A stretch of 64,000 nucleotides of DNA from an uncultured cyanobacterium (lineage in GTDB: Bacteria > Cyanobacteriota > Cyanobacteriia > Pseudanabaenales > Pseudanabaenaceae): contig OY969811.1 of assembly GCA_963703315.1 (NCBI GenBank), forward strand, positions 4,256,001-4,320,000. Direction: 5' to 3'. Made by a program: the position numbers and the translations under genes. Positions 15,962-34,896 of this stretch are shown here, piece by piece (the stretch's first letter is position 1; every line of letters begins with the position of its first letter). The notes beneath the pieces are model-generated. The model was not told the origin of the DNA. It searched no databases and saw only the letters and a program-made list of their open reading frames with translations.

Positions 15962-18900
15962 ATGGTTGCTGAGATTTGTTTTGATGGTTATTTAAGGGCG
16001 ATTGTAAACACTCACCAAAAATGGCAGGAGTGGTATACGCCAACGGATGCGACAGGAAAGGATTCATCGCAAGTTGAGCGCGATCGCCCTGCTTTTTTTG
16101 ATTTTGGTTTGATGGTGCAGACGGTAGAGCCGCCAAAGGCTGAGCAGGAAAGAGAATTAGAGCAGGATCGCGAAAAGAAGGAAAAAATCGAGCGGTTGCC
16201 TGTGTTGGAGGGGATTTGTAAGTATGCGGCGGATCATGTGTTGCTGGTGGGTAGACCAGGATCGGGGAAGTCTACGGCTTTGGCGCGGTTGTTGTTGCAG
16301 GAGGCGGAAAATGCGTTAAAGGATCAGCAAGCGAAAATTCCTGTGTTGGTGGAGTTGCGGTATTTGCCCTCGGAGGCGAATGAGTCGTCTGTATGCGATC
16401 GCATTCTTGCCTTTATGCACAAACACGATCCTGCTTTGGATATTGATGAGGCGGGGATTAAGCAGCTATTGCGTCAGGGGCGGTTGTTGCTGTTAGTGGA
16501 TGGGGTGAATGAGTTGCCATCGGATCGCGGTCGCGTCATGGTAAATCAATTTCGGGAGCTTTATCAAAAAACTTGCCCAATGATCTTTACGACGCGGGAG
16601 TTGAGTGCGGGTGGGGATTTGGGGATTACCAAGCGGTTAGAGATGCAGCCTTTGACGGAGCCTCAGATGCAGCAGTTTGTGATGGCGTATTTGCCGACGC
16701 AGGGAGAGAGGTTGTTGCGGCAGTTGTCGGGAAGGTTGCGAGAGTTTGGGCAAACGCCTTTGTTGTTATGGATGCTTTGTTCGTTGTTTCAGCAGTCTGA
16801 GCAGATTCCACCAAATTTAGGTATGGTGTTTCGGGCCTTTACGGTGGGCTATGGGGACAGGATTAAGCAGAATGTGACGCTATCGAAGGATTCGCGGGCA
16901 TGGTGGGGGCGGTTGTTGCAGTATCTAGCGTTTAAGATGACCTGTGGCGAAAGTCTGACGGAATTGCAGGTGGCAATTTCGCGGCGGAAGGCGGAGCAGT
17001 TTTTGGTGGAGTTTCTGCGGGGGAAGGTGGAGTTTGCGGACGATCTTGCGGTGCGGTGGTTGGAGGATTTGCTGAAGCATCATTTGATTCAGATTAGCAA
17101 TGACCGCATTGAGTTTCGGCATCAGTTAATTCAGGAATATTATGCGGCGGAGTGGTTGTTGGGACTGTTGCCGAGTCCGAGTTTGAGTGATGCGCGGTTA
17201 CGGCAGGGCTATCTTAATTATTTGAAATGGACGGAACCTTTGGCGTTGATGTTGGAGTTGGTGGAGAGTGAGGAGCAGGCGGTGCGGGTGGTGAGGCTGG
17301 CGCTGGAGGTGGATTTGCGGTTGGGGGCGAGGTTGGCTGGGGCGGTGAAGTATGGGTTTCAGGAGAAGACAGTTGGGTTGTTGTTGAGGGAAATAGAAGA
17401 ACAGAAAATTCCGAAGTTATATGCGATCGAACTTTTTGGGGAAACGGGATCTAATGTTTCTATTACTACTCTAACTCAATCTCTTAAAGATGAAGATTCT
17501 GATGTACGTGAAAATGCTGCAAAAGCATTAGGTCAGATAGCTAGTGACAAAGCGGTCGAAGAACTTATTCAAGCCCTTAATGATACTAGTTCTTGTGTAA
17601 GTGGCAATGCAGCAGAAGCCTTAGGTCGGATTGGTAGTGACAAAGCAGTTGAGCCTCTTATTCAATCTCTTAAAGACACGAATCTTACTGTTGGTAGGAA
17701 TGCAGCAGAAGCCTTAGGTCGGATTGGTAGTGACAAAGCAGTTGAGCCTCTCATTAAAGCCCTCAAAGATACACCTTATACAGATTCTGAAGTACGTAGG
17801 AATGTAAAAAAGGCATTAGGTAAGATTAGTAGCGATAAGTCAGTCAAATCACTTATTCAAGCTCTCAAAGACAAAGATTTTTATGTGCGTTGGGATGCAA
17901 CAGAAGCATTAGGTCAGATAGACTGTGACAAAGCAGTTGAGCCTCTCATTCAAGCTCTTCAAGATACAGATTCTGAGGTACGTGAAAATGTAGCAAAAGC
18001 ATTAGGTCAGATAGGTAGTGGCAAAGCAGTTGAGTCTCTCATTCAAGCTCTTCAAGATACAGATCCTAATGTGCGTAAAAATGCAACAGAAGCATTAGGT
18101 CGGATTGGTAGTGACAAAGCAGTTGAGCCTCTCATTCAAGCTCTTCAAGATACAGATTCTAATGTGCGTAAAAATGCAACAGAAGCATTAGGTCAGATTG
18201 GCAGTGACAAAGCAGTTGAGCCTCTCATTCAAGCTCTTCAAAATACGAGTTTTACTGTTGGTAGGAATGCAGCAAAAGCATTAGGTCGGATTGGCAGTGA
18301 TAAGGCAGTTGAGCCTCTCATTCAAGCTCTTCAAAATACAAAAGTGCATGAAAAGGCAGCAAAGGCATTAGGTCAGATAGGTGGTGATAAAACAGTTGAT
18401 CTTCTCATCCAAGTTCTTCAGGATACAAATTATAAAATGCGTTATTGTGTAGCACAAGTATTAGGTCAGATTGGCAGTTACAAAGCAGTTGAGCCTCTCA
18501 TTCAAGCTCTTCAAGATACAGATTTTTTTGTGCGTTGGAATGCAACAGAAGCATTAGGTCAGATTGGCGATGACAAAGCAGTTGAGCCTCTCATTCAAGC
18601 CCTTCAAGATACAAATTATAAAATGCGTTATTATGTAGCAAAAGCATTAGGTCAGATTGGCAGTGATAAAGCAGTTGAGCCTCTCATTCAAGCTCTTCAA
18701 GATAAATATTTTGATGTGCGTATGTTTGCAGCAGAAGCATTAGGTCAGATTGGCAGCGATAAAGCAGTTGAGCCTCTCATTCAAGCTCTTCAAGATAAAT
18801 ATGTTGATGTATCTATGTTTGCAGCAGAAGCATTAGGGGAAATCAATATTAGTGGAAAGATTAGCATCGTGTCTTTTGCATTACTAGAAGTATTAGAAAA

Positions 18901-19321
18901 TAATAACGAGTTATTATGTACGCCAGCGATTAAAGCTTTGGGTAAAATAGGTGGAGAAATGGCAGTTCGAGGACTAATACCATTACTACAAGATAGCGAT
19001 TTCTTAGTGAGGCAATCTGCTCGCGAATCTCTAAGCAAAATTGCCTCTCCTAAGACTATTAGTTACCTCTACAAGCTAATTCCAACAACCTACGGGCTTA
19101 ATGAAATTCACCTCGTAATCTCTAATATCCAAGCCCGATGTAAATACTACAACTACGACATAGCCCAAACACCCTTACCCCCCGAAGATAACCCCAACCC
19201 CACCACAGGCAACACCTACATCTTCAACAAAGAAGTAGGACAAGTAGTTGGTGGAAATCTAATAGTTCAGGGTGATAATATTGCCACACAAAACAACCAA
19301 AAGACAGCACCTGAATCCTAA
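15962..19321 (+). CDS. NACHT NTPase with HEAT/PBS-lyase repeats (NLR-like) and C-terminal G/N/Q-rich motif
   Basis: GRPGSGKST, LLLVDGVNE, TPLLL, F.HQLIQEYYAA; about 15 31-aa HEAT repeats; Pro-rich linker then motif tail. Confidence 0.9.
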   Translation: MVAEICFDGYLRAIVNTHQKWQEWYTPTDATGKDSSQVERDRPAFFDFGLMVQTVEPPKAEQERELEQDREKKEKIERLPVLEGICKYAADHVLLVGRPGSGKSTALARLLLQEAENALKDQQAKIPVLVELRYLPSEANESSVCDRILAFMHKHDPALDIDEAGIKQLLRQGRLLLLVDGVNELPSDRGRVMVNQFRELYQKTCPMIFTTRELSAGGDLGITKRLEMQPLTEPQMQQFVMAYLPTQGERLLRQLSGRLREFGQTPLLLWMLCSLFQQSEQIPPNLGMVFRAFTVGYGDRIKQNVTLSKDSRAWWGRLLQYLAFKMTCGESLTELQVAISRRKAEQFLVEFLRGKVEFADDLAVRWLEDLLKHHLIQISNDRIEFRHQLIQEYYAAEWLLGLLPSPSLSDARLRQGYLNYLKWTEPLALMLELVESEEQAVRVVRLALEVDLRLGARLAGAVKYGFQEKTVGLLLREIEEQKIPKLYAIELFGETGSNVSITTLTQSLKDEDSDVRENAAKALGQIASDKAVEELIQALNDTSSCVSGNAAEALGRIGSDKAVEPLIQSLKDTNLTVGRNAAEALGRIGSDKAVEPLIKALKDTPYTDSEVRRNVKKALGKISSDKSVKSLIQALKDKDFYVRWDATEALGQIDCDKAVEPLIQALQDTDSEVRENVAKALGQIGSGKAVESLIQALQDTDPNVRKNATEALGRIGSDKAVEPLIQALQDTDSNVRKNATEALGQIGSDKAVEPLIQALQNTSFTVGRNAAKALGRIGSDKAVEPLIQALQNTKVHEKAAKALGQIGGDKTVDLLIQVLQDTNYKMRYCVAQVLGQIGSYKAVEPLIQALQDTDFFVRWNATEALGQIGDDKAVEPLIQALQDTNYKMRYYVAKALGQIGSDKAVEPLIQALQDKYFDVRMFAAEALGQIGSDKAVEPLIQALQDKYVDVSMFAAEALGEINISGKISIVSFALLEVLENNNELLCTPAIKALGKIGGEMAVRGLIPLLQDSDFLVRQSARESLSKIASPKTISYLYKLIPTTYGLNEIHLVISNIQARCKYYNYDIAQTPLPPEDNPNPTTGNTYIFNKEVGQVVGGNLIVQGDNIATQNNQKTAPES
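17489..18840 (+). repeat. About 15 tandem 93-bp HEAT-repeat units
   Basis: Recurring gcattaggtc[a/g]gattgg..gacaaagcagttgagcctctcattcaagctcttcaagat. Confidence 0.93.
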
Positions 19322-29788: not shown

Positions 29789-30115
29789 TTAAGCTGCCTC
29801 TTGCCTATGAATTGATGCTTCTATCTCATCGATGTGAGTTTCGGCGTAGCGCCATGCGTTTGCTAGGTCTGTTGCGAAGAGGGTGGGATAGTCTTCGAGG
29901 ATGTAGGCTTCGCTTGCACCTTGGCGTTGGAGGCTCACTAGTAGCCATACGGGTATGCGGGTTTGACGGATGCAAGCATCACCGCCCATGACTCTGGGAT
30001 TTTTTTCGATTCCTTGCCATGTGTTGCTGAGGCTTTGGACTAGGATTTGGATTGCTTGAGTTTTTTCTTCGGGGGTTAGGGATAGTAGTTGTGGTTGTAG
30101 TTCTTTGAGTGTCAT
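29789..30115 (-). CDS. DUF433 family protein
   Basis: GIEKNPRVMGGDACIRQTRIPVW; no PIN partner downstream. Confidence 0.88.
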   Translation of the reverse strand: MTLKELQPQLLSLTPEEKTQAIQILVQSLSNTWQGIEKNPRVMGGDACIRQTRIPVWLLVSLQRQGASEAYILEDYPTLFATDLANAWRYAETHIDEIEASIHRQEAA

Positions 30116-30177: not shown

Positions 30178-32130
30178 TCAACCATTTTCCATTTCGGCAA
30201 AATGCTCCATCAGCGATCGATGGATAAATATATAGCCGCCACCAACTTTTTGGAGAAATAGTTTGTCGCTTGCCCAATCGAGAAACTTGGCATAATTACA
30301 AGGGATACGTCCTGTGACATATAGAATTAGGCGTAATACAAAGTGTTTAATACAAGTTAAACCACCAAAGAACAACCAGAAGAATAGTCCAAACATCAAT
30401 CCAAATGTTACAGACCCTCTTAAACCAGAAATTAGAATTTCATTAATACCAATAATAAATTCACCATTATTCCTAGCGAAAAAAGTATTTACTCCAGTAA
30501 GAATCCCAAAAATCAATCCAAAAATCAGAAAGCTTATAAGACCTAAGGTCATAGCGTTATTCGCTGATTGTTGAATGCCTTGATTTGGATAAGTTTTTAA
30601 TTTGACCTCAGATCTAGTCAGACCAACAATTAAGCTACCAATTAACCCCAAGCTTATTCCTATAATTAGTCCAGAAACTAGCCAAATAGATAGCATACTG
30701 ACTAACCCCAAAAATATTCCCGAAGGTATAGCAATACTTATCCCAGCAGGTAGTGCAATAAGAAACCCAGCAATTAGTCCAAAATTCAGCGCTCTCTTAA
30801 ATTCCTTTTTGCATTTTTCCCAAGAAAACCTTACAGATTCTACAGAATTTATTTGTAAAATTAATCCGCCTGTAATTGCGACAATTAGACCACCTATAAA
30901 TCCAAAACTTAAACCTAGATTTATACCAGTATTCAAACCACTTAATAATCCAAAAGTTATTCCAATACTTAATCCAAACATCAGGCTACCAGTTAACAAA
31001 GTTCCAATTTGGTAGAAGATAATTTTTTCTTTGTTCAGCCAATATGGTTGAGTTTTTTCAATCAGAAAAATAGTTTGAGAATACCAAATTATGTGCTTTG
31101 CAATCCAGACAAGCCAACGTGTTGCATCTTGTCGAGAATAATGATAATTCTCTTGAGATTTATAACTTGGATGATATGCTCTTAGCCTTGAGCCTTGAAA
31201 TATACGGTCAACATAGTCATCAAATAATTGTTTCTTGCAATTTGAAGCAATTGTACTTACAGGAATATCTGCAACTTCAATTCCCTGATAAGCAAACACC
31301 ATGATATTGAGTAACAAAGGAGATTGAGATAGCTCTTGCAGTGACTCATCCTCAATTAGCAATGTTTTTAATACAATCAGATTTGACTGAAGGCTATCCA
31401 GATAAGCTTGAATTTGCTCGGTAGTGAGAGGTTGCAGCGCAAGAGCAGATTGCAGTTTTAAGCGATCGCCTAACTCCTCATAATCCTTCATACGACAACA
31501 CACCACCATCTCTGTTGCTTGCTCCTGCTGAAAAGCATTCAACGCCGTCACGCAAGCATTGCGCTTTTCCAAATCCCGAATTTCATCCAAACCATCCAAC
31601 AACAGCAACAATTCCTGCTTCTCCACCCACTGCTGCCCAATCTTCCGAGGTACATCATACTTGCTACTCAGTTCCTCCACAATCCATTTCGCAATAGCCT
31701 GTTTTTCCGTCGCCCAAGAAGAAAGATTTAATACCACAGGAATACGACGATCTATCTCCGCTTCCGCACGAGCAATCAGATCTCTCGCTAATTGCAGCAA
31801 AGTAATCGTTTTCCCCGACCCTGGTTCTCCCAAAATTAGCAGCGTTCCACCTTCTCCCAACTTATCGAAGACATCAATTACAGGTGTACCTGTGGGCAAA
31901 GGTTGACAGGACTTGTCTGGATTAATGATATCCATATTCCAAGGAGAAGCAACCGCACTAGGAAGATTCTCTAATCCGAGAACAATGGGAATCTGCTCAT
32001 GCAGCGACTTCTCTAAAACACCCTCAACCCAAGCAGTCCTAACGTTATTCAGCAGCGCTTTACGATTGCGATACTCGTGCTTCGTTGGAGGAGGAAACTT
32101 TACCCGCTCCTCCCATTCGGGCGGCTGGAG
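30178..32130 (-). CDS. NACHT NTPase with C-terminal transmembrane GLxxGL repeats; reading frame open back to the TGA at 32131-32133
   Basis: GEPGSGKT, LLLDGLDE, SPLLL, GGGYIFIH; 65 open in-frame codons upstream of the first ATG (31935) encode EYRNRKALLNNVRTAWVEGVLEKSLH. Confidence 0.85.
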   Translation of the reverse strand, partial: LQPPEWEERVKFPPPTKHEYRNRKALLNNVRTAWVEGVLEKSLHEQIPIVLGLENLPSAVASPWNMDIINPDKSCQPLPTGTPVIDVFDKLGEGGTLLILGEPGSGKTITLLQLARDLIARAEAEIDRRIPVVLNLSSWATEKQAIAKWIVEELSSKYDVPRKIGQQWVEKQELLLLLDGLDEIRDLEKRNACVTALNAFQQEQATEMVVCCRMKDYEELGDRLKLQSALALQPLTTEQIQAYLDSLQSNLIVLKTLLIEDESLQELSQSPLLLNIMVFAYQGIEVADIPVSTIASNCKKQLFDDYVDRIFQGSRLRAYHPSYKSQENYHYSRQDATRWLVWIAKHIIWYSQTIFLIEKTQPYWLNKEKIIFYQIGTLLTGSLMFGLSIGITFGLLSGLNTGINLGLSFGFIGGLIVAITGGLILQINSVESVRFSWEKCKKEFKRALNFGLIAGFLIALPAGISIAIPSGIFLGLVSMLSIWLVSGLIIGISLGLIGSLIVGLTRSEVKLKTYPNQGIQQSANNAMTLGLISFLIFGLIFGILTGVNTFFARNNGEFIIGINEILISGLRGSVTFGLMFGLFFWLFFGGLTCIKHFVLRLILYVTGRIPCNYAKFLDWASDKLFLQKVGGGYIFIHRSLMEHFAEMENG

Positions 32131-32553
32131 TCAGTTAAATGTAACAGGAGCGTTAAAGACTGGATTCTGAAAATTATTTTTTATTTCGTCGGCTAATTTG
32201 CTGTAGTTCTGAATTATAGTGGGTTGCCCATTAACAGTCTGTACAGTTGTTTGAATTTTCTGTAATAACTCATGATCAGCTTTCACCACCGCCTCAACTG
32301 CCAAAATTGCCTGAGAAACTTCATTATCAGTCTTAGCCACAGATTCTAACTCTGACACCGCCAGTTTAAAATCCGCCGATGGTTCAGCTTGAGCGATCGC
32401 CTCAGTCTTAGCCAGTGGCTTTTTCTTCAGCAAATTTACTAAATTACCGACTTGATGACTAACCGCCTCACCGAGCTTGTCCCCAGTCTTTTCAAATGCT
32501 TTTTTTAGAATTAACGTCCCAACGGCGATCGCGGCTGTAGTCAGTGGCTCCAT
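32131..32553 (-). CDS. 140-aa helical protein (Bell-like N-terminus) with N/Q/F-rich C-terminal motif
   Basis: MEPLTTAAIAVGTLILKKAFEKTGDKLGE start, GAGG SD, ends KNNFQNPVFNAPVTFN*. Confidence 0.8.
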   Translation of the reverse strand: MEPLTTAAIAVGTLILKKAFEKTGDKLGEAVSHQVGNLVNLLKKKPLAKTEAIAQAEPSADFKLAVSELESVAKTDNEVSQAILAVEAVVKADHELLQKIQTTVQTVNGQPTIIQNYSKLADEIKNNFQNPVFNAPVTFN

Positions 32554-32705
32554 AAAAACCTCTCAATATTTGGTGTTAACGCCTTACTACAAAAATTTTA
32601 CCTTGAAATCTTGAAATCATTCTGAGCGATCGCCATTTACTTTTACAGAGATTAAAGAGGCGATCACCCATCAGAGAAATGTGGAATTGAATATGTCTAT
32701 CAAGT

Positions 32706-33026
32706 TCATTCTTCAACAATTGTAACTTGACCTTTACTGGCGGAATCTAGAGCCGCTAAAAGTTTTGATACTAAAGGCTTGAGCGCCGCCAAGCTATTTG
32801 ATGGTGCTTGCAAAACCACTACAGCAATATCGAATTGTGGCAAATTCTGTTGAAAAGATAAATTGCGATCAACCGTCACAAAAACATCAAACTCTTCTAC
32901 TGCAAGAGCTAAAAGCTTTCCGTTTTTGACTCCTGCCCATCCCATCTGCGGAACTGTTTTTACTTCATAGCCAATAATTTCTCTAGCAAATCGGCGATCG
33001 ATACATTCATCTAAAAGAATCCTCAT
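32706..33026 (-). CDS. DUF5615 PIN-like toxin
   Basis: MRILLDECI, MGWAGVKNGKLL, FVTVDRNL.FQQN. Confidence 0.88.
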   Translation of the reverse strand: MRILLDECIDRRFAREIIGYEVKTVPQMGWAGVKNGKLLALAVEEFDVFVTVDRNLSFQQNLPQFDIAVVVLQAPSNSLAALKPLVSKLLAALDSASKGQVTIVEE

Positions 33027-33027
33027 A

Positions 33028-33246
33028 TTATGCCGCCACACTCAACAAGCTTCTTCCTAACTCTTCTAAAAAGTAAATTACCTGTTCCTTAGTCACAGTT
33101 GGAAAACCATCTAAAAAATCATCAATGGATTCTCCATCCTTGAGATAATCCAAAAGCGTCTGCACGGGAACTCTAGTATTCGCAAATACAGTTGTACCAC
33201 CCATAACATCGGGAGATCTGCTAATAAACTTTGAGTCTCTAAACAT
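33028..33246 (-). CDS. DUF433 antitoxin
   Basis: SPDVMGGT.VF.NTRVPVQTLLDYL..G.SIDDFLDGFP. Confidence 0.88.
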   Translation of the reverse strand: MFRDSKFISRSPDVMGGTTVFANTRVPVQTLLDYLKDGESIDDFLDGFPTVTKEQVIYFLEELGRSLLSVAA

Positions 33247-33319
33247 AAATTTGTGATATTTAGATATATTTAATATTTTAGCAACTATTGCTCTAGCGAT
33301 CGCCATCATCAAAAAACAA

Positions 33320-33643
33320 CTAAGCGACTTTAGATAAATCCTTTATTTGAATCTTGATAGAAGCACTTTCTAAACTGCTAAAAGTAAACTCAGTCCTAAA
33401 TCCCAGCTTATCCAACATCGAAAACAGCATATCCAAAGTAAACTTATCAATTTTTCCATTCACAATGTCCGACACACGCGGCTGAGTAACCGCCAACCTT
33501 TCAGCCGCCTCTTTCTGTGTCCAACCTCTATTCTCAATTATGTCTCGAATCATAATCGTCAAGTCAGCCTTCAAAACCGACTTACTAGCGACTTCAGGCT
33601 CCTCGATCGCCTGAAACGGACTTTCGTAAAACTTGATTGCCAT
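33320..33643 (-). CDS. XRE-family HTH protein (HigA-like antitoxin)
   Basis: WTQKEAAERLAVTQPRVSDIVNGKIDKFTLD. Confidence 0.85.
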   Translation of the reverse strand: MAIKFYESPFQAIEEPEVASKSVLKADLTIMIRDIIENRGWTQKEAAERLAVTQPRVSDIVNGKIDKFTLDMLFSMLDKLGFRTEFTFSSLESASIKIQIKDLSKVA

Positions 33644-33777
33644 AAATACTAAGCGTTTTGTCAAATTATACAAAATTTTATATAATTAGTCAAATAAACA
33701 AAAAGATTTGGAGTACTAAATTTAAGCGATCGCCACATCCATAAACCTATCAACAAACAGCGATCAGCTTTTTAATA

Positions 33778-34173
33778 CTAAGAAACACCTAAAAACTTCC
33801 TAAGTGCATTTTTATATACTTTTGGTAAACGTTTTGAAACTATCCCACCTTGCTGTATTTGCGACAGAATAGTAGGAGAAAAACGGCACTTTGGCATACG
33901 GCTACCCACACAAATTACTCTAGCTAATTGCTCACTATCCATCTCACGAGCATCCAGATAATTTATCACCGACTCACGCTTCACAAAATTAGGCACACCT
34001 TCTGTATTGGGTTGAAGAATACAACTAAGATCAGACTTGGCTCTGCGCGTAGTCACATTCACAAATAAATACTTATCGGGAGCAGTTTCCGCGATCGCAA
34101 TATAAAGGTGTTGATCATTCGGAGGTGTCTCCAACAAAAAAGCATCACCCAAATTCACGTTGATGCTTGTCAT
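33778..34173 (-). CDS. Putative toxin (PemK/MazF-like fold) coupled to a Panacea antitoxin
   Basis: GDAFL..P..HLYIAI, VNVTT, FVKRES.I.Y; TAATG overlap with the upstream gene. Confidence 0.55.
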   Translation of the reverse strand: MTSINVNLGDAFLLETPPNDQHLYIAIAETAPDKYLFVNVTTRRAKSDLSCILQPNTEGVPNFVKRESVINYLDAREMDSEQLARVICVGSRMPKCRFSPTILSQIQQGGIVSKRLPKVYKNALRKFLGVS

Positions 34174-34733
34174 TACGCACTCAGAACCTTATCTAAATAA
34201 GCCTCTCTAGCCGCCTCTTGTCTTATTGCCGCAATCTCCTCAGTAGTCTTGCCCATAAACCTCAACACATCATCAACCACAATCGGAATACGCGAACCAT
34301 CAGGATCTTTCCATTCAGGTAGATCGTGCGTCCATTCAGCAACGTCAAAGGGATTAAGATGTCCAAAAGTTCGATAAACCTCTTGAATGATTTCCTCTTC
34401 TTCTTCACAAAGATGATCAGTGCTAGGATCTCTTAATAGATAGATATTGTGGTTAACATCACGGATAGAAATAAACTTTTTCCAAAGTGGTAAAGCACCA
34501 TCAACAGACTTCCCCTTAATCAGATCATACACACCACTGAGAACAGGACCATAATCCATTGAGAAATAACAATCGCCAGTAATTGTTTGTTCTATACGTT
34601 CTAAAGCTATGCGATCGGCTATATAAAGCATCTTCAGCAAACCTAGATATTTCATAGGCTTACCGTGTAACTTTAAAAACATTGCTGCGGCTTCAACAGC
34701 TTTTTGAGGATGAAACCGAAATAAAATCGCCAT
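34173..34733 (-). CDS. Panacea (DUF4065/SocA-like) antitoxin
   Basis: LLKMLYIADR, ITGD.Y.SMDYGPV, WTHDLPEW; start at MAILFRF. Confidence 0.85.
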   Translation of the reverse strand: MAILFRFHPQKAVEAAAMFLKLHGKPMKYLGLLKMLYIADRIALERIEQTITGDCYFSMDYGPVLSGVYDLIKGKSVDGALPLWKKFISIRDVNHNIYLLRDPSTDHLCEEEEEIIQEVYRTFGHLNPFDVAEWTHDLPEWKDPDGSRIPIVVDDVLRFMGKTTEEIAAIRQEAAREAYLDKVLSA

Positions 34734-34896
34734 AACTGGTTTCCTACTCTCAAGGCTCTCAATACTATTATAAAACTTTAACCTTGATAACGATCGCTTT
34801 GAGCATTGCATCGCAGGAGCGCGATCGCTTAAATTTGTCTAGATATCACCATTACTGTTAATCTCTAGTGCAGACGATGATTAACAGGTTTTTTCT

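Follow-up and report, generated by a model that had tools for sequence, protein, structure and literature searches.

Pairs of a Bell-domain cell-death effector and a nucleotide-binding oligomerization domain (NOD)-like receptor (NLR) with bacterial amyloid signalling sequence (BASS) motifs have been described by Dyrka et al. (10.1101/2020.01.06.895854), and Bab/Agp of Escherichia coli is a further case (10.1101/2024.11.07.622273). The effector in the available text of these sources is small and helical, its first helix being hydrophobic and its C-terminus bearing a short motif; the receptor directly behind it, a NACHT or NB-ARC protein, is collinear with it and shares the motif. The locus reported here, positions 30178-32553 on the minus strand of a 64,000-nucleotide (nt) stretch of an uncultured cyanobacterium of the Pseudanabaenaceae (GCA_963703315.1, contig OY969811.1, positions 4,256,001 to 4,320,000; hereafter the window, a piece of one 4.57-Mb contig), has this layout, with the NACHT protein in frame directly behind the effector's stop, and shares with the described pairs the phylum and the multicellular or aggregating lineages. 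It differs from them in that its receptor has neither a start codon nor a motif copy of its own, the link from the effector being an in-frame one that runs over a conserved TGA and an RNA hairpin; a motif common to effector and NLR is found in the window only if a readthrough product is counted. Programmed UGA readthrough, by which one unit would encode both halves of a Bell/NLR cell-death pair, is the explanation favoured here, with a probability of roughly 75%. The observations behind it are the conservation of the stop, of the frame, of the RNA element and of a single-copy motif, and the homology of the post-stop segment to translated NLR N-termini.

Stop-codon readthrough with a stimulatory RNA structure is textbook knowledge for viruses and is known in eukaryotes; to our knowledge, it is essentially undescribed in cellular bacterial genes outside selenocysteine. 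Viral signals of type II combine UGA-CUA or UGA-CGG with a 3' structure and occur at alphavirus nsP3/nsP4 and in coltiviruses, UGA-CUA being the context in Sindbis virus, O'nyong-nyong virus and Plautia stali intestine virus (PSIV), and stimulatory structures start from +12 in the Moloney murine leukaemia virus (MoMLV) pseudoknot, in Venezuelan equine encephalitis virus (VEEV) and in Colorado tick fever virus (CTFV), with spacers of at least 8 nt (available part of PMC13517186). The same source gives 3-5% readthrough for the UGA of the Q-beta coat gene, which yields the A1 product, and 1-6% for UGA read as Trp in Bacillus subtilis. The window's junction resembles the type II and MoMLV gag-pol signals, as that source describes them, in its UGA-CUA/CUR context, its 8-nt spacer and a structure at +12, and, as proposed here, in a low fixed ratio of a long product that would share its N-terminus with an abundant short one. 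It differs in lying in a cellular bacterial gene, read by 70S ribosomes and release factor 2 (RF2), and in a far smaller structure of 4-5 bp with a possible second stem; the common context and +12 position are read, by analogy, as convergence. The proposal would agree with the Q-beta and B. subtilis cases in that bacterial ribosomes pass UGA at a few percent and a C-terminally extended protein cooperates with the short form. Q-beta, in contrast, has UGA-A and no described stimulatory hairpin, and here context and structure are conserved across the sampled genera. A full-text literature search that did not cover the supplement tables of 10.1101/2020.01.06.895854 returned no description of readthrough in Bell/NLR systems, and the words 'readthrough' and 'stop codon' are absent from the available text of that paper and of 10.1101/2024.11.07.622273. 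The 2020 pairing method, as set out in the available text, requires a motif at the annotated NLR N-terminus and would therefore, we infer, miss junctions of the TGA type.

Translation of the minus strand from 32553 to 30178 gave 791 codons with one internal stop, in agreement with the preliminary description of a 140-amino-acid (aa) open reading frame (ORF) and a NACHT ORF in one frame split by a single TGA. The distance from ATG 32553 to ATG 31935 is 618 nt, or 206 codons, which places both in a common frame, and the genome search also reported 30178..32553 as one open frame with one TGA. As that description had also stated, no ATG, GTG or TTG occurs in the 65 codons behind the stop, the first in-frame start being ATG 31935 (codon 65). 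The parts of the locus, all on the minus strand, are as follows.

30178..32553, minus strand: whole frame of 140 codons, TGA, 650 codons and a stop; predicted readthrough product of 791 aa
32134..32553, minus strand: Bell-like effector ORF of 140 aa, ending ..APVTFN-TGA; the termination product
32491..32553, minus strand: N-terminal hydrophobic helix, residues 1-21, beginning MEPLTTAAIAVG.. (helix 3-21 in the AlphaFold2 (AF2) model)
32134..32217, minus strand: N/Q/F-rich C-terminal motif, 'type B', residues ~113-140, KLA(D/E)(E/S)IKN.FQ.....P.TFN
32131..32133, minus strand: TGA, candidate recoded stop, conserved at related junctions
32123..32130, minus strand: 8-nt spacer CUCCAGCC, +4 to +11; family consensus CUR NAG YC
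32102..32122, minus strand: RNA hairpin, from RNAalifold, pair counts and a covariance model
32087..32094, minus strand: CCUCCUCC, possible pseudoknot partner for loop GGGAGG; family-wide pairing weak to moderate
31936..32130, minus strand: 65 post-stop codons without ATG, GTG or TTG, comprising a Pro-rich linker and then a pre-NACHT segment
32070-31936, minus strand: conserved pre-NACHT segment RNRKALL.., translated in homologues
31393..31845, minus strand: NACHT NTPase domain (Pfam PF05729, E 7.8e-12)
31830-31807, minus strand: Walker A, GEPGSGKT
30331..30990, minus strand: multi-pass hydrophobic region, approximate limits, from the translation read by eye
30178..30330, minus strand: conserved C-terminal segment (..KFLDWASDKLFLQKVGGGYIFIHRSLMEHFAEMENG) plus stop, near-identical in 13 close homologues

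A DNA search with the type-B motif found 47 genome loci, which span Nostoc, Nodularia, Aulosira, Scytonema, Cylindrospermum, Brasilonema, Aetokthonos, Microcystis and Oscillatoriales. At 44 of these the effector ends in TGA and frame 0 stays open for 55-999 codons, with a Walker A motif in frame 0 at 41 of the 44; in the other three the match is truncated or interrupted. Loci L020-L066 include some from named isolates of Nostoc, Microcystis, Scytonema and Cylindrospermum, which are presumably culturable. With the window and the same-genus genome G007 added, all 46 loci have TGA, followed by a Leu codon in 41 (CTG 20, CTA 19, CTC 1, TTG 1) and by a Pro codon in 5, and the first in-frame canonical start lies 10-146 codons past the TGA, except at the locus with TTG as its Leu codon. 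A set of 67 loci from Nostocales, Microcystis, Oscillatoriales and the window's own genus yielded 64 distinct junction sequences. TGA is present in 64/64, C at +4 in 63/64, T at +5 in 57/64, A at +8 in 59/64 and C at +11 in 63/64; one later locus, outside the 64, carries A at +4. Over the first 49 post-stop codons of these junctions, frame 0 has 7 stops, in 2 sequences, against 235 stops in 64 sequences for frame +1 and 251 stops in 62 sequences for frame +2. Frameshifting was rejected on this closure of the two other frames within 49 codons. Of 2036 long ORFs in the window's genome, 277 (13.6%) have TGA as their stop and 43 (2.1%) have TGA with C behind it, so the organism uses TGA as a stop and this context rarely; because TGA-C is rare there and recurs at every comparable locus examined, the arrangement at the junction is more than chance.

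Three further samplings were made. As an unbiased control driven by the N-terminal domain, the effector of the same-genus genome G016, which bears a different motif ('type A'), was searched against 401 genomes of the phylum, giving 81 matches in 44 genomes, of which 29 non-own loci were examined. Twenty-one end in TGA followed by C(T/C)N; 15 of them have a Walker A motif in frame 0, 3 run on in frame into transmembrane (TM) proteins 212-328 aa long, and the remaining 3 are short or broken. Six are classical pairs, whose NLR begins at a start codon of its own and carries the motif a second time, with effector stops TAA (five) and TGA-T (one) and NLR frames relative to the stop of 2, 2, 2, 0 (with intervening stops), 1 and 2; the last two loci are broken (TAG). 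The TGA-type junction also occurs behind at least four other kinds of C-terminal motif and is therefore a module of its own. A pattern for the post-stop element alone, with no constraint on the codon before it, had 25 matches across 18 of the 401 genomes (8 of these loci overlap the control set), and the reversed control matched none. TGA precedes the element in 25/25, a Walker A motif follows in frame in 24/25, and a Bell-like ORF of 123-160 aa lies upstream in 25/25, mostly beginning ME(P/A).. and in a few cases M(T/I)DP.. or MSLT... A metagenome scan gave 12 loci: the 7 with an intact effector all have TGA, CTN and an in-frame Walker A, and 5 are broken upstream. The conservation of an in-frame stop at this junction, which the preliminary description had named as support for recoding, was thus found in the 64 junctions, in the stop-unspecified pattern matches and in the intact metagenome loci alike. 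Among the cyanobacteria sampled, Bell-type pairs seem to be built around the TGA junction more often than in any other way.

The varied downstream domains predicted in the same description were also found. The partners fall into at least 5 groups at <40% identity and 10 groups at a 60% threshold, and comprise NB-ARC proteins with TPR repeats, NACHT proteins with HEAT repeats (some with NCC-H), NACHT-TM proteins and one TM protein without an NTPase domain. Plain TM proteins are the partners at L039, L081, L087 and L091, where the TGA junction leads in frame to a protein of 212-328 codons with a hydrophobic stretch and without Walker A, in the case of L039 also without a Pfam match; proteins other than NLRs may be served by the cassette as well. 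Some effector genes are broken midway, with a recurrent break at ..LRYLVWFDR.. in L065 and L160 (the Microcystis-type loci being L065, L157 and L160) and a premature TAA after ..KQESPLQ in L066, L162 and L163; matching breaks in separate records suggest an inserted element or an inherited lesion.

The motif is present once. A second copy was sought in the first 49 post-stop residues of 63 loci including the window and none was found (median z -0.2, maximum 1.6), against z 5.7 and 7.9 in two classical pairs subjected to the same test. Classical NLRs have, directly behind their N-terminal motif, a segment (..KKLTPTKDIPYRGSVHFVGRETEL..) that is certainly translated, and the post-stop peptide of one NB-ARC class (..TKLTPTKSIPYRGSVNFVGRETEL..) is homologous to it; the first canonical start of that class lies 32-38 codons downstream, inside the NB-ARC domain.

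The junction consensus is TGA CTR NAG YCG YCYG-(purine-rich loop with GGGGA)-CRGR YA AAG TTA. RNAalifold, unaided, placed a hairpin from +12, 8 nt past the stop, with a G-Y closing pair and a four-pair stem; its form in the window is a G.U closing pair (32122/32102), CCCG (32121-32118) paired with CGGG (32106-32103), and the purine-rich loop AAUGGGAGGAG. Stem cells are paired in 93.4% of cases against 80.5% in shuffles (0/500 reach the observed value) and in 10-45% when the partner is slid. Pair types at the four positions are CG 37/UA 24; CG 59/UG 2; CG 25/UA 18/UG 16/GC 1; and GC 45/CG 10/UG 2, so that three of the four pairs have changed on both sides in a compensatory manner. One pair couples a synonymous third position (CCU/CCC) to the second position of a Gln/Arg codon and is for that reason hard to explain at the protein level. 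A possible pseudoknot stem between loop GGGA and a downstream UCCC is weakly supported, the share paired being 84%, compared with 78.8% for shuffles and 69% for a slide of -1. Covariance model R1, run on the 4.57-Mb genome, scored the window locus at 48 bits; among the matches listed, the next had 21 bits (E 0.7). In 150 further genomes it found six more places, all of them a small helical ORF, TGA and an in-frame NB-ARC protein, two of which lie in same-genus genomes behind a different effector tail.

An orthologous locus was found in 2 of 24 same-genus genomes searched, G016 and G020. Effector identity is 85% over residues 1-124 (G016) and 80% over residues 3-125 (G020), and the start of the NACHT protein is 88-89% identical. 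Both are classical two-gene pairs, in which an effector with the type-A motif (..KLAEKIGLVVQGGKVEIQNFSF) and TAA is followed by a 27-nt spacer and an NLR with its own start codon and its own motif copy. From Met to stop the effector measures 140 aa in the window and in the two-gene arrangement alike; it follows that the TGA of the window is where the effector natively ends and did not arise by nonsense mutation inside a fused gene. In the DNA alignment both flanks are ~90% identical, and the junction cassette between them is non-homologous, with a length of ~110 nt in the window against ~190 nt in G016 and G020. Since the orthologous locus of these two relatives holds the two-gene cassette, the cassette at the window's junction has been swapped. 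In run X2, a contig has window positions 32052-32254 replaced by 278 other letters, which, going by size and with the letters unread, would be the two-gene cassette as an alternative allele. G007, of the same genus at 31% identity, has a 142-aa effector ending ..NTFNF, followed by TGA CTA CAG and 33 codons without a canonical start that lead into a NACHT-TM protein. The ratio of nonsynonymous to synonymous differences (pN/pS) between the window and the two orthologues is 0.22 for the effector part, and 0.16 and 0.11 for the 45 post-stop codons preceding the first ATG, which is the purifying selection on both sides that the preliminary description had looked to. A second Bell-like gene in the window's genome (L118 3156-3575, minus strand, G000:C1:1065655-1066074) encodes 139 aa with a type-A motif (..KLAEKIGIVVQSGG..); unrelated small ORFs come after it instead of an NLR, and it may be an orphan left by rearrangement.

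The NACHT assignment was made with PF05729, which scored 45.8 bits (cut-off 26.7) over residues 96-246 of the post-stop protein. A homologue search with the read-through frame, with X at the stop, gave 1763 proteins at E<=1e-3 among 7998 scored. Fourteen homologues were inspected at full length, 13 close ones (635-782 aa, 55-71% identity) and a fused one, P0026. The segment RNRKALLNNV..W..GVLEKSLH is present and translated in 14/14, all of which start upstream of it, and it was also found in two kinase-NACHT paralogues; the view that it is the usual N-terminal part of the family and is translated was therefore borne out. Twelve of the 13 close homologues begin with the short motif MNQFGKFAEKIGILVQGG.., and P0017 has a diverged version. 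More distant NACHT relatives have TIR, protein kinase, trypsin-like or caspase domains fused at the corresponding point, so an effector-NACHT product would be the family's normal architecture. The predicted product is in this respect like the all-in-one NLRs (fungal HeLo-NLRs, bacterial TIR-, kinase- and protease-NACHT proteins and P0026), joined at the pre-NACHT segment; it differs in that the stop is maintained, which would give a free effector as well, and in that effector and NOD still have between them a motif for which an all-in-one receptor would have no use. P0026 (769 aa, 44% identity, 96% coverage) is an uninterrupted fusion of an effector homologue and a NACHT protein with Phe at the TGA position, and its C-terminal segment is more divergent than in the 13 close homologues. 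P0155, a short record, reads ..PVTFN-W-LESP.. straight into the pre-NACHT segment and looks frameshifted beyond; its DNA was not found in the metagenome scan, and it is known from the protein record. Sense codons at the junction, which the preliminary description had taken as the sign of a simple nonsense mutation or sequencing error, are thus rare, being limited to these two records. As to further effector-NACHT fusions, a search restricted to longer homologues gave none at E<=1e-3, which is weak evidence, and a search with the junction region gave 16 proteins that all cover the post-linker part only, likewise weak evidence on fused forms. The hydrophobic region (30331-30990, minus strand) is almost entirely different among P0005-P0018, which are otherwise 55-71% identical overall, which is how a rapidly evolving sensor part would be expected to behave; in the homologues the region is followed by the 40 conserved C-terminal residues.

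The effector is called Bell-like because it begins MEP..hydrophobic, because of its context, and because two classical pairs with a shared motif have effectors 80-85% identical to it. Its start resembles the 'MEPIS' region reported as conserved in Bell/Hell domains in the available text of 10.1101/2024.11.07.622273. A weak AF2 model (mean predicted local distance difference test (pLDDT) 61.9) has helices at 3-21, 29-44, 61-75, 77-92 and 94-109 and a disordered tail (pLDDT <50, residues 110-139). The hydrophobic N-terminal helix noted earlier was accordingly modelled; the Bell fold suggested with it was not confirmed, Foldseek of this weak model against the Protein Data Bank (PDB) giving no match at E<=1e-3. 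Pfam, NCBIfam and PADLOC models did not match the effector, PADLOC reporting only weak P-loop matches for the NLR, and a profile search of PDB sequences for the effector's identity was discarded as it returned only low-complexity helical and TPR-design matches. An exhaustive profile-free search gave 150 effector relatives at E<=1e-3, nearly all of 120-160 aa and free-standing, four being clearly longer. Many free-standing relatives with the type-B motif KLA(D/E)(E/S)IKN.FQG end exactly at ..P(V)TFN, in keeping with the earlier statement that the N/Q/F-rich tail ends right at the stop. By composition (N/Q/G/F-rich) and predicted disorder, the tail is a candidate amyloid motif.

Under the readthrough model, most ribosomes would stop at the TGA and release the 140-aa effector, a putative helical Bell-like domain with an amyloid-type motif, and a minority would decode UGA and continue through the linker, the NACHT domain and the TM region to give a receptor of 791 aa that begins with the effector itself, identical motif included. 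Trp would be the most likely residue to be inserted, brought by the single near-cognate tRNA-Trp; the genome has one tRNA-Trp(cca), and the Trp at the stop position of P0155 was counted toward readthrough. Leakiness would arise from the UGA-CUR context together with the small hairpin, possibly a pseudoknot, 8 nt past the stop (+12), where a structure would sit at the ribosome's mRNA entrance. Once triggered, the receptor would oligomerise and cluster its motifs, which may nucleate and, by amyloid templating, recruit the abundant free effector; the recruited effector would then kill by damaging the membrane.

Several points weigh against this model. The evidence that ribosomes pass the TGA is indirect and drawn from sequence. 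Fused forms with a sense codon exist (Phe in P0026; Trp in P0155, seemingly frameshifted later), and the downstream frame is short, at 55-259 codons, in 8 of the 44 loci, away from contig ends; these systems often decay. The hairpin is short, at 4-5 bp, and the window sequence taken singly folds no more stably than shuffles (z -0.16) and prefers a pairing of the loop with downstream sequence. Kinship among the sequences inflates the covariation counts, and P/S-V/T covariation could in principle be a protein-level effect. The branch used for the pN/pS comparison is common to relatives that have the segment as plain coding sequence. Bell membership draws on N-terminal sequence, helical prediction from a weak model and genomic context. 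Finally, many loci of the NB-ARC type have an in-frame GTG or TTG 20-25 codons past the stop, and such codons might start a motif-less NLR.

The last point leads to the alternative that two separate proteins are made, the effector ending at the TGA and the NLR starting at a non-canonical codon or at the first downstream ATG, GTG or TTG, with the hairpin and its Shine-Dalgarno-like, purine-rich loop (GGGGA/GGAGG-like) serving translational coupling or regulation and the shared frame being inherited, not required. This is considered unlikely. Frame 0 is open in 62 of the 64 junctions and the other frames are closed, which coupling or re-initiation would not need, and no start codon stands at a fixed distance from the loop; classical pairs, for their part, use mixed frames and TAA. 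In the window and in the L021-L061 class, an NLR begun at the first canonical codon would also lose N-terminal parts that are conserved and elsewhere translated, and any NLR made separately would have no motif to address its effector. An internal promoter or terminator was rejected as well; a consensus scan gave 5 promoter-like sites against 7.6 expected, none at the junction. A contig from an RNA library that crosses the junction, from a relative ~92% identical, speaks for co-transcription at most.

A decaying or disabled gene, that is, a fused effector-NACHT gene with a nonsense mutation or an assembly error at 32131-32133, would account for the uninterrupted fusion P0026, the TGG-like Trp of P0155 and the short downstream frames at 8/44 loci, and is nonetheless judged very improbable. 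The TGA stands exactly where the orthologous two-gene effector stops, it is kept in all 64 distinct junctions and in the other sets, and both sides are under purifying selection; a nonsense mutation was rejected on the native stop position and the kept TGA. Assembly error was rejected on the contig of the likely source run X1, which is without difference over 31774-32700. Two other DNA-run contigs and the RNA-library contig bridge the TGA at ~92-97% identity (5-42 differences in 151-526 nt), with no change at 32131-32133 among the 40 of 115 differences listed; runs X4-X11 and X13-X21, which hold small shares, do not enter into this comparison. Least credible of all is decoding of UGA as selenocysteine, with the hairpin as a bacterial selenocysteine insertion sequence (SECIS), or by a dedicated opal-suppressor tRNA. 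The locus is like selenoprotein genes in having an in-frame UGA closely followed by a hairpin, which is the bacterial SECIS layout, and differs from them in that no selenocysteine machinery scored over cut-off in the 6/6 carrier genomes tested: in the window's genome selA had no match and selB, selD and the Rfam tRNA-Sec model stayed below cut-off, and in 5/5 other carrier genomes neither selB nor tRNA-Sec exceeded it. ARAGORN made one call of a 'tRNA-SeC(tca)' (94 nt, G000:C1:2474203-2474296), rejected as a false positive; its stems are mismatched, it has no Rfam tRNA-Sec match and it lies inside an open frame of 1148 aa.

A wider reading of the data is regarded as somewhat favoured, less firmly than readthrough at the window itself. 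According to it, UGA-CUR, the 8-nt spacer and the +12 hairpin or pseudoknot would form a dedicated, modular cyanobacterial recoding cassette between cell-death effectors and many kinds of NLR sensors, most Bell-type pairs of the phylum would be single recoded genes, and cellular bacterial genes would have in the cassette their first structured readthrough signal that is independent of selenocysteine, one that converged with those of alphaviruses and retroviruses. As the effector-to-receptor ratio would then be set at the ribosome, readthrough could possibly act as an arming switch responsive to RF2 activity or to translation stress during phage infection. If readthrough at these junctions is confirmed, it would offer a conserved and compact bacterial readthrough signal open to mutational testing and a natural example of a sensor-to-executioner ratio fixed at translation. 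It would also show a new way in which amyloid-type signalling keeps the motifs of receptor and effector matched, by encoding the motif once, and it would correct the annotation of a large class of cyanobacterial immune genes, whose NLRs are now called from internal starts and whose effectors are orphaned.

The window contains a second NLR at 15962-19321 (plus strand; 1119 aa, NACHT and many HEAT repeats). Small toxin-antitoxin (TA)-like genes surround the locus, all on the minus strand (29789-30115, 32706-33041, 33028-33312, 33320-33673 and 34173-34811), comprising two DUF433, one DUF5615, one HTH_37/XRE and one SocA/Panacea antitoxin-like gene. The neighbourhood looks like a defence/TA islet beside housekeeping genes (SepF, P5C reductase and an AIR-synthase-related protein). 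A stretch of ~40 nt just upstream of the effector gene (32626-32665) occurs in many unrelated contigs with loose ends on both sides, including 14 contigs of run X3 with a summed depth of ~100, and is probably a short dispersed repeat.

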